Shown piece after piece: positions 7,529 to 10,500 of a stretch of DNA of 41,278 nt (within the stretch, counting starts at the first letter, position 1; the number at the start of each line of letters is the position of its first letter). The notes under the pieces were generated by a model. It was not told where the DNA came from, did not search any database, and saw only the letters and a program-made list of their open reading frames with translations. Both the position numbers and the translations under genes were made by a program. Where the stretch lies: the IMG/VR virus record IMGVR_UViG_3300014682_000025; one strand, given 5' to 3'. The DNA is from a virus (taxonomy: Duplodnaviria > Heunggongvirae > Uroviricota > Caudoviricetes).

Positions 7529-10500
7529 TCAGTTGATACTGATACCTGCTGTGGATTTTTTCATCACCACAACCAGCAGATCGCTGATACTGGTTGTTGG
7601 TGTCCAGTCATTCGCTCCTGATGAAGATACGGTGAATGTCAGTGTCAGCGTCCCCTGTCCGGCAGGCATATCTATAACTGAGGAAAATACGCCCTGAGCA
7701 TCCGTCGTGGACTGATTAAAAATCTCCTGACCATTGCGGGTCACTCTTAACCGGCAGGTTGAATACCAGTATGACTGTTGGTTATTACTGTTGAAATTCT
7801 CATGCTTACCACCGCGGAATAACACTGGCGGTATCATGACCTGCCGGTCAAATTTCTGATCATCACTGATTCTTACCGTGATGGTGCCACTGGCATAAGT
7901 GCTCGTGCGGGGGAAAGACTTGCTGACCGTTTTGACAATATCACCTTCAATCTGGTTGGCTGACAGTTTCCCCTTAATCTGACAGTTCTCATTAATCGTG
8001 ACGTTGTTGAGCGTCCCTGAGTTCGCATTCACACTGCCACTGATATCCGCATTTTTAGCGGTCAGCTTTCCGTCTGATGTCAGGGAAAATACCGGAGGGC
8101 TGCCACCGCTGGTAATGGTGGGGGCTGTCAGGCGCTTCAGGAACACGTCGTTCATGAATATCTGGTTGCCCTGCGCCACAAACATCGGCGTTTCATTCCC
8201 GTTTGCCGGGTCAATAAACGCGATACGGTTAGCGGCAACCAGAAACTGGCTCAGTTTGCCTTCCTCCGTGTCCTCCATACTGAGGCCAATACCCGCGACA
8301 TAATGTTTGCCGTCTTTGGTCTGCTCAATTTTGACAGCCCACATGGCATTCCATTTATCGTTGGCATCCTTCCACTCTTTCGAAAACTCATCCAGTCTGC
8401 TGGCGTTATCCTCCGTCAGATCGACTTTTTCCAGCAGCTCCTTGCCGAGATGGGATTCGGTTATCTTGCCTTTGAAAAAATCCAGGTAACCTTCCGCATC
8501 ATCGCTCGCCCGACCGACGGACTCCACGAATGCCGATTTGCCAACGGTGTTCACACTGCGGATATAAAAGTAATAATCATGGCCCGGTTTGATATTGATA
8601 CTGGCGGCTATCCAGTACAGCCCCGTGCCAAGGTAGCGGGCTGTGGTTTCAACCTGCCTGATATCGGTAATCCGCGTTTCCGAGAACCAGAACTCAAACT
8701 GTACCGTCGGATCATAAACGGCAAGATGCGGCGTTGCGGTTATCTGAAAATAGCCCGGCGTCAGCTCAATCCGCGACGGTGCTGCCGGTGCGGCAATCCG
8801 GAACGATACCGACGCCGGATCGCCCTGCTGCCCCCAGGCATTTGCCGCCCGGACTGTCAGCCTGTAGTTCCCCAGCGCCAGTTGCGTGAAGCGGTATGTG
8901 GTTTCCGTCGTCCGGGCCGTGCTGACCAGCCGCTCACTGCCGTCATCCGCTGCCACGGTCAGGCGAAGCATAAAGCTCACGCCCTTCACCACCTTCGGCG
9001 TGTCCCAGCGCGCCAGCACCTGATATTCCCCGCTGTCTGCGGTGACTTCGGCAGTCAGGTGCTGCACCGCGGGCGGCGTGACGCCATTCACCGTGCCGCT
9101 CTGGTCGCCGTCAAAGTGCGCCCCGTTATCCACGATGGCTTCTTTTTCGGGTACATGCTGCACGGCGGTGATGGCATACGTGCCGTCGTCGTTCTCACGG
9201 ATACTCACGCAGCGGAACAGGCGCTGGCGCAACGTCGGCAACTTCAGCCCCCATACGCTGTATTCAGCAACGCCGTCAGGAACACGGCTCACTTTCACCT
9301 TCACGCCGTCGGTGACGGACTGGACCTCCACGCTGACCGGATTACCCTGCCCGTCAACCAGGCTTATCAGCGTGGTGCCGGAGGATGGCAGCGTGATTTC
9401 ACGGTCGAGCGTCAGCGTCCGGGTCTGGCTGTTCACCGCCAGCACGCGACCACCGATGCTGATACCGGCATAGTCATCATCGCAGATTTCAATAACATCG
9501 CCCGGCACATGGCGAAGCCCTTCTGCGCCCACGCTGAAATCCACGGTCTGCGTTTCCAGCAGTTCCGTTTTAATCAGCCACAGCCCGGCTCGGTGTGCCT
9601 GCCCCCGACTGGTACAACCAAAGGCATCCATCTTCGTGACATTACGACCGTAACGGGCAATGGCCTGCGTATCTTCAACAAGCTCTGTCGCCGTCTCCCA
9701 GCCGTTATTCGGGTCAATCCAGTTCACCTCAACGGCATTATGGCGGTCCTTCAGGGCGCTGAAGCTGTAGCGGAACGGCGCACCATCATCCGGCATCACC
9801 ACATTACTGCGGTTATAGGTCCACACCTTATCTGATGGTCGGTCCTGCACGAACGTCAGCGTCTGCCCGTTCCATACCGGCATACAGCGCATCGCCGAGC
9901 AGAAATCACTGANNNNNNNNNNCAGTACTGGCCGATGACATACAGCGCCCATTTATCCACATCCGCCGCACCAAGACGTTTCCCCATGCCGTAGCGCGGG
10001 TGGGTCAGCATATCCCACAGACACCAGGCCGGGTTGTTGCTGTATGCCGGTTTTAACGTTCCGTCCCAGATACCGCTGTATTGCCGCGTCTGCGGGTTAT
10101 AGTTCGACGGCACCTGCAGAATACGCCCGCGAAGATGATAATTACGGCTCACCTGCTGGCTGCCGAACTGCTCCGAATCCACCTTTACGCCGACCAGTGC
10201 CGTGTTCGGGTAGCCCTGTTTCACATCGATGATTTCGGTGTATGACGACCAGAGCGTTTTGTTCTGCAGCTGGTCTGTGGTGCTGTCCGGCGTCATTCTG
10301 CGCATCCGGATATTAAACGGGCGCGGCGGCAGGTTATCCACCACCACCGAGGCCAGATACTGCGAGGTGGTTTTGCCCTTAATGGTGATGTCTTTTTCCG
10401 TCACCCAGCCACCATTACGCTGTATCTGAACCAGCAGGCGAACTTCCGACGGATTCCGGTCCCCCTTTGAGGTGGTTTCCACCAGTGCCTGCACACCGAA

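Follow-up and report, generated by a model that had tools for sequence, protein, structure and literature searches.

The last 154 residues of the tip attachment protein J encoded in the analysed window (the whole 41,278-nt stretch of DNA) are, with a probability that we put at about 0.9, an exchanged receptor-binding domain (RBD) cassette of the phi330, YYZ-2008 and A8 allele, which stays within the same Ig-like GpJ_C family and would use OmpC and not LamB as receptor. The OmpC-binding RBD allele itself is already known, structurally characterised and very widespread. For annotation, the practical value is that J should be labelled an OmpC-type central tail fibre and not a LamB-type one, even though lambda-like sequence makes up 86% of the protein. 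The gene also offers a clear example of an approximately 460-bp RBD cassette moving between otherwise nearly identical lambdoid J genes, and engineered lambda delivery particles use the same allele.

The J gene (tip attachment protein, central tail fibre) occupies 7529..10845 on the minus strand, which corrects the strand of an earlier observation. It was delimited from two ORFs (9856..10845 and 7529..9952), from Pfam domains and from the alignment with lambda J. Five Pfam domains are found in J, all above their gathering scores (Phage-tail_3, Ig_J, Ig_J_second, Phage_Tail_Tip and Ig_GpJ_C), and the gene order, all on the minus strand, runs from a Lambda_tail_I gene (10906..11553) through J and an Ail/Lom gene to Stf and Tfa. 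By its domain series, its identity to lambda and its gene position, J is a lambda-type tip attachment protein. In a global alignment with lambda J (NC_001416, 15505..18903), identity is 97% over residues 1-307, and there are 44-50 identities per 50-aa window over lambda residues 340 to approximately 975. The body of J is as close to 434 J as to lambda J or marginally closer (approximately 97% nucleotide identity to 434), and one stretch of 11-14 residues in the body is the same as in 434 J in the multiple alignment. The first-pass annotation had described the N-terminal and central parts of J as close to lambda and the last 150 or so residues as different; the former holds at approximately 97% identity up to residue ~975, and the latter at approximately 43% over 154 aa.

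The divergent part, which we refer to as the RBD cassette, comprises 154 codons (NENCQIKG…AGISIN) at 7532..7993 on the minus strand, delimited by the identity step, the junctions and the PF12421 match, and is followed by the stop codon of J at 7529..7531. The range 7529-8000 that had been proposed for the divergent region is thus essentially the exact cassette (codons 7532..7993 plus the stop), and the peptide quoted with it is present in the minus-strand translation of 7529..9952. The last three windows of the global alignment with lambda J contain 23/50, 16/50 and 23/48 identities (62 identities in the last 148 alignment columns), and tblastn gives 43.3% over the last 152 aa. At the nucleotide level, 60-nt windows match both lambda and 434 at 57-60 positions down to approximately 8014; below that the successive values are 38/60, 28/51 and 24/51, with roughly 50% identity as far as the stop codon, so that DNA identity drops from 59/60 to approximately 50% inside one 60-nt window. 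Fine inspection places the upstream junction at ~7990, just after …ACGATTAAT, that is, …ACG ATT AAT (…NVTIN), and the downstream junction lies at the J stop codon or between the stop codon and a terminator-like hairpin. Relative to lambda, the RBD loops contain a 4-residue deletion and a 5-residue insertion. The abrupt step from 97% to 43% is a mosaic boundary and not a product of chance. The alignment of J with its counterparts in lambda, 434, phi80 and HK97, which the first-pass annotation had named as the check on its claim, with high identity to the lambda C-terminus as the contrary outcome, was run, and such identity is clearly absent. The C-termini of phi80 and HK97 were set aside as possible relatives of the cassette (FhuA-type phi80 and N15, HK97-type): in a forced multiple alignment they reach 15% (phi80) and 24% (HK97), and they do not share the RBD.

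In spite of its low identity to lambda, homology of the cassette to gpJ RBDs is secure on the profile and sequence matches. PF12421 (Ig_GpJ_C) matches the extreme C-terminus (residues 670-792 of the 793-aa part of J) with E=4.4e-36 and 124.4 bits against a cutoff of 26.2, and the full length of the cassette aligns with solved lambda gpJ structures (8xcj, 8iyk) at E of about 1e-54. The best match among solved structures is PDB 9wca/9wcb, "A8 gpJ 713" (E=3.9e-120), which is approximately 98% identical over 193 aa with three differing positions within the RBD part. Our account of these two entries is drawn from their titles and chain names; in the library searched, a full-text search for 9WCA returned chance strings only and no paper describing 9wca/9wcb. 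Entry 9wca is titled "Closed state of A8 gpJ 713 central tail fiber", and 9wcb, a cryo-EM structure released 2026-01-28, is titled [quoted passage not shown]. Three chains of 9wcb are named "Outer membrane porin C", as seen when K-12 OmpC was compared with PDB sequences. A single-sequence AlphaFold2 model of the last 200 aa is all-beta with a pLDDT of 56, which is too poor to tell loops from strands. Foldseek with this low-confidence model places 9wca, 9wcb, 8xck and 8xcj at the top (E from 1e-21 to 2e-15), where the TM-score is only about 0.5 and the ranking is partly driven by sequence.

The receptor assignment follows from two nearly identical, characterised relatives. The RBDs of phi330 and YYZ-2008 are each identical to the cassette at 152 of 154 residues; phi330 was first seen among the megablast matches. 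Among the tested Keio outer-membrane knockouts of BW25113, phi330 lysed all except ΔompC, and Plac-ompC restored plating (PMC12502783). In the AlphaFold3 model of the same study, hairpin E953-S962 of phi330 lies inside the OmpC barrel and A1015-P1020 lies on its rim, and T918-Y921 is without contact. The OmpC-contact hairpins of the present J are predicted from this published model; together with our own residue count, it places the barrel-entering hairpin (phi330 E953-S962) at 7772..7801, where it bears the 5-residue insertion relative to lambda J, and the rim hairpin ANDWTP (phi330 A1015-P1020) at 7598..7615, both on the minus strand. The short loop TSTY (phi330 T918-Y921) falls at 7895..7906 (minus strand) by residue count. 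The second relative, A8, joins lambda gpJ to the C-terminal part of a natural gpJ variant and comes from a study in which a lamB-deleted recipient was used in order to find gpJ variants with another receptor (PMC11338833). A8 gpJ gave OmpC-dependent DNA delivery into ΔlamB cells, efficiently via both MG1655 and EDL933 OmpC, and A8, 1A2 or both served 21 of 23 OmpC variants (PMC11338833). An OmpC-type allele would be expected to exceed 95% identity across the 154 aa to members with a demonstrated receptor, and this is what was found. By its near-identity to characterised binders, the receptor of this exact sequence is almost certainly OmpC. At 43% and 45% identity, LamB-binding lambda and OmpC-binding 434 are about equally far from the cassette, and the receptor assignment therefore rests wholly on the near-identical references and not on a ranking by similarity. 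A preprint on receptor prediction (10.64898/2026.04.02.716166) was set aside, as it concerns Drexlerviridae GpJ and not lambdoid RBD alleles.

Comparison with these and other systems shows where the present J is placed. The J of phi330 (PV189401; PMC12502783) shares, besides the RBD, the layout of J, terminator, Lom and Stf; it differs in that the phage belongs to the genus Pankowvirus (YYZ-2008-like), that its J body has diverged further immediately before the RBD (…LFAVSITSSGNPPAFSLTPDGR…), and that it has N and not D in ANNWTP and a terminal S and not N. The A8 chimera (Eligo; PMC11338833; 9wca/9wcb) has the same combination of a lambda-type J body and this RBD allele, which is found naturally here, whereas A8 is an engineered fusion with NS in place of TS in the short TSTY loop and N in place of D in the rim hairpin. 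The lambda gpJ RBD (8xcj / 8xck; PMC11101478) corresponds in family (Ig_GpJ_C) and position and, by homology, probably in its trimeric Ig-like fold and in bottom loops that enter a trimeric porin, and differs in its 43% identity, its loop indels and its receptor, LamB. The J body and downstream lom-like gene of 434 (OL657227) are approximately 97% identical to the window in nucleotides, but its RBD is only 45% identical and has other loops, which makes it a separate OmpC-binding allele class; that 434 J also uses OmpC is reported at second hand, in work to which PMC11101478 and PMC12502783 refer. Among the distinct allele classes, those of phage 21 J (OL657228, 80%) and BP-4795 J (NC_004813, 76%) come nearest; 20-24% of their residues differ, and they share with the cassette a 20-residue hairpin stretch and the ANNWTP hairpin. 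Other classes in the phage collection are VT1-Sakai at 59%, 434 at 45% and lambda at 43% (tblastn). At 95% amino-acid identity or above, the RBD is carried by 44 phage records of the collection, mostly long-tailed Stx1a/Stx2a-converting phages, and also by YYZ-2008, CP-1639, 2H10 and Turner. A search of 5,426 complete E. coli genomes found the allele in 1,511 records at 95% nucleotide identity or above (575 at 99% or above and 936 at 95-99%). It is among the commonest J tips of E. coli prophages.

That the RBD still uses LamB, or LamB together with OmpC, its divergence being an adaptation to LamB variants or an immune-like diversification, would agree with the domain family, and probably the fold, that it has in common with the LamB-binding lambda RBD. 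Porin use is also plastic in this family, as point mutations in lambda J are reported to extend receptor use to OmpF (cited in PMC11101478). We nevertheless consider continued use of LamB highly improbable. A LamB-binding lambda-type allele would be expected to show high identity over lambda residues ~980-1132, where 43.3% was found with indels in the loop regions; phi330, with 152 of 154 RBD residues in common, fails only on ΔompC among the tested Keio outer-membrane mutants; and the A8 chimera was evaluated in lamB-deleted recipients. The earlier suggestion of a receptor other than LamB is accordingly supported by the figures of 152/154 to phi330, approximately 98% to A8 and 43% to lambda. 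Within an OmpC-type RBD, a separate question is posed by the private substitutions of this copy. Over 472 nt, it departs from the common allele, taken from E. coli O103:H2 12009, at exactly two positions, both nonsynonymous. One is AAC to GAC at 7609 (codon 7607..7609), which replaces N by D in GAN[N/D]WTP, corresponding to phi330 N1017 in the predicted rim hairpin; the other is AGC to AAC at 7533 (codon 7532..7534), by which the terminal S becomes N. The Asn is kept in six of six aligned alleles (phi330, YYZ-2008, P15-385, 21, BP-4795 and VT1-Sakai), and the best nucleotide identity of the cassette among the 5,426 complete E. coli genomes is not above 99.6%, so that the changes are rare. The N-to-D change could weaken OmpC binding or shift the preference among OmpC variants. 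That the two substitutions alter specificity, whether by selecting other OmpC variants, by lowering affinity or by abolishing function, is unlikely in our estimate. In its favour, besides the rarity and the conserved Asn, are the position of A1015-P1020 at the OmpC rim in the AlphaFold3 model (PMC12502783) and the finding that A8 and 1A2, which are related alleles, differ in the OmpC variants that they accept (PMC11338833). Against it, Asn and Asp are similar in size, A8 can differ at two or three positions of another loop without losing its binding to several OmpC variants, and this assembly, with its N gap, is a draft in which bases may have been miscalled. The two changes may be either real rare polymorphisms or such draft-assembly errors. 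Slightly more doubtful still is that this is a rare natural OmpC-type RBD variant in which the N-to-D change (7607..7609) and the changed last residue together retune the accepted OmpC variants. If true, this would give a single-residue host-range determinant that can be read directly against the 9wcb complex.

A different objection is that J might be a pseudogene of a decaying prophage at the Qin site, its RBD being without present function. J is read as two overlapping out-of-frame ORFs (9856..10845 and 7529..9952), and the prophage sits at the Qin locus, which in K-12 holds a defective remnant. The break between the ORFs, however, falls exactly on a 10-N assembly gap in J (9913..9922), the sole non-ACGT stretch of the window. 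In E. coli P15-385 (locus L008), a related prophage at the Qin site has the same stretch without interruption, and by comparison with it the Ns replace approximately 92 nt, equivalent to lambda J residues ~309-338 (the stretch to match is …CDQSVPDGFGGTEPRITCNAYLTTQRKAWDVL…). Subtracting the 10 Ns from 92 leaves a length that three does not divide, so the gap alone is expected to shift the frame, and the apparent frameshift is a product of the placeholder length. Outside the gap, which hides these ~92 nt, J is open throughout and in register with lambda J, both of its parts being 97% identical to lambda J apart from the cassette. Full sets of head, tail, Stf, Tfa and lysis genes are present as long ORFs, and the related Qin-site prophage has an intact gpJ of 1,135 aa. 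Since the N placeholder is where the reading frame breaks, we regard a pseudogene as very unlikely; the prophage probably makes a functional J, part of which is hidden by the gap.

The surroundings of the cassette bear on how the OmpC-type RBD may have been acquired. Downstream of J lies a gene for an Ail/Lom-family outer-membrane protein of 434 type (199 aa, 6863..7462, minus strand; PF06316, E=2.3e-119). This gene and the spacer match 434 at 56-60 of 60 nt (approximately 97%) but lambda lom at only 20-43 of 60 (approximately 50%). The sequence is the same as 434 from 7483 onward, and the sequences of lambda, 434 and the window converge again from approximately 6930 (assigned to the 5' end of stf). 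As both the body of J and the lom-like gene are approximately 97% identical to 434, the sole exchange relative to 434 is the RBD cassette of approximately 460 bp. The cassette was probably gained by homologous recombination at conserved flanks, both of them 434-like: upstream, a conserved stretch coding for 19 residues of J would have served as anchor, and downstream, the J-lom spacer. Two conserved flanks are the expected signature of homologous recombination, from which we infer the event itself. A pattern scan detects a terminator-like hairpin in this spacer (GGGCGTCAgaaaTGACGCC followed by a T-run; 7492..7511, minus strand), and an annotated terminator of phage 21 is found at the corresponding place. 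The same kind of scan detects a second terminator-like GC-rich hairpin with a T-run directly after lom (6815-6836, minus strand). Hairpins after J and after lom, as identified by pattern scan, would make lom a separate, moron-like unit.

From homology with the lambda-LamB system (PMC11101478) and from the closed and open states in which A8 is deposited, a mechanism can be proposed for the OmpC-type J. The J trimer would present its three RBDs at the end of the central fibre and dock them by their bottom loops on and into the OmpC trimer, and the docking loops would include the hairpin at 7772..7801, which is longer than that of lambda, and the ANDWTP hairpin. Binding of OmpC would then spread the RBD bases and draw the RBD tops together; in lambda, binding to LamB spreads the RBD bases (PMC11101478). 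The change may travel up the beta-prism and the alpha-helical shaft, both of them here 97% identical to those of lambda, releasing the FNIII strings and opening the tail tip for DNA ejection. In this scheme the exchanged part would be the docking surface only, and the body that transmits the signal would be kept.

Judged from its ends, the window is E. coli chromosome in which a lambdoid prophage of full length occupies the Qin locus. On the left, positions 1..2700 show 100% identity to the ydfJ-ynfT-ydfK-pinQ stretch found in several E. coli strains; on the right, the match is to immunity genes of the dicC/ydfA type. The structural module shares 97-98% identity with mEp460-like phages. A truncated ydfJ (MFS transporter, 1..1284) is followed by the ynfT/ydfK genes, and the host/prophage junction at the Qin locus falls within 1..3210 of the window. 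A pinQ-like serine invertase (2620..3210, plus strand) abuts tfa. An invertible tail-fibre segment beside this invertase was considered and dropped, as no inverted repeats of at least 18 nt bracket stf/tfa. The side tail fibre Stf (973 aa, 3883..6804, minus strand) has a phage_tail_N domain, three Phage_fiber_2 repeats and a Collar domain and is longer than the Stf of Ur-lambda; its chaperone Tfa (191 aa) is encoded at 3308..3883 on the minus strand. The side fibres of Ur-lambda bind OmpC reversibly (PMC12617516). Side fibres also shape host range, and the essential receptor is set by J. tRNA genes were searched for in the window and none was found. Rfam models above their gathering scores identify IS009 inside tfa (3342-3540, minus strand), two cspA-type thermoregulator leaders of Qin-type cold-shock genes (28216-28601 and 31112-31504, both minus strand) and a sok antitoxin RNA of a hok/sok module (35059-35233, minus strand).
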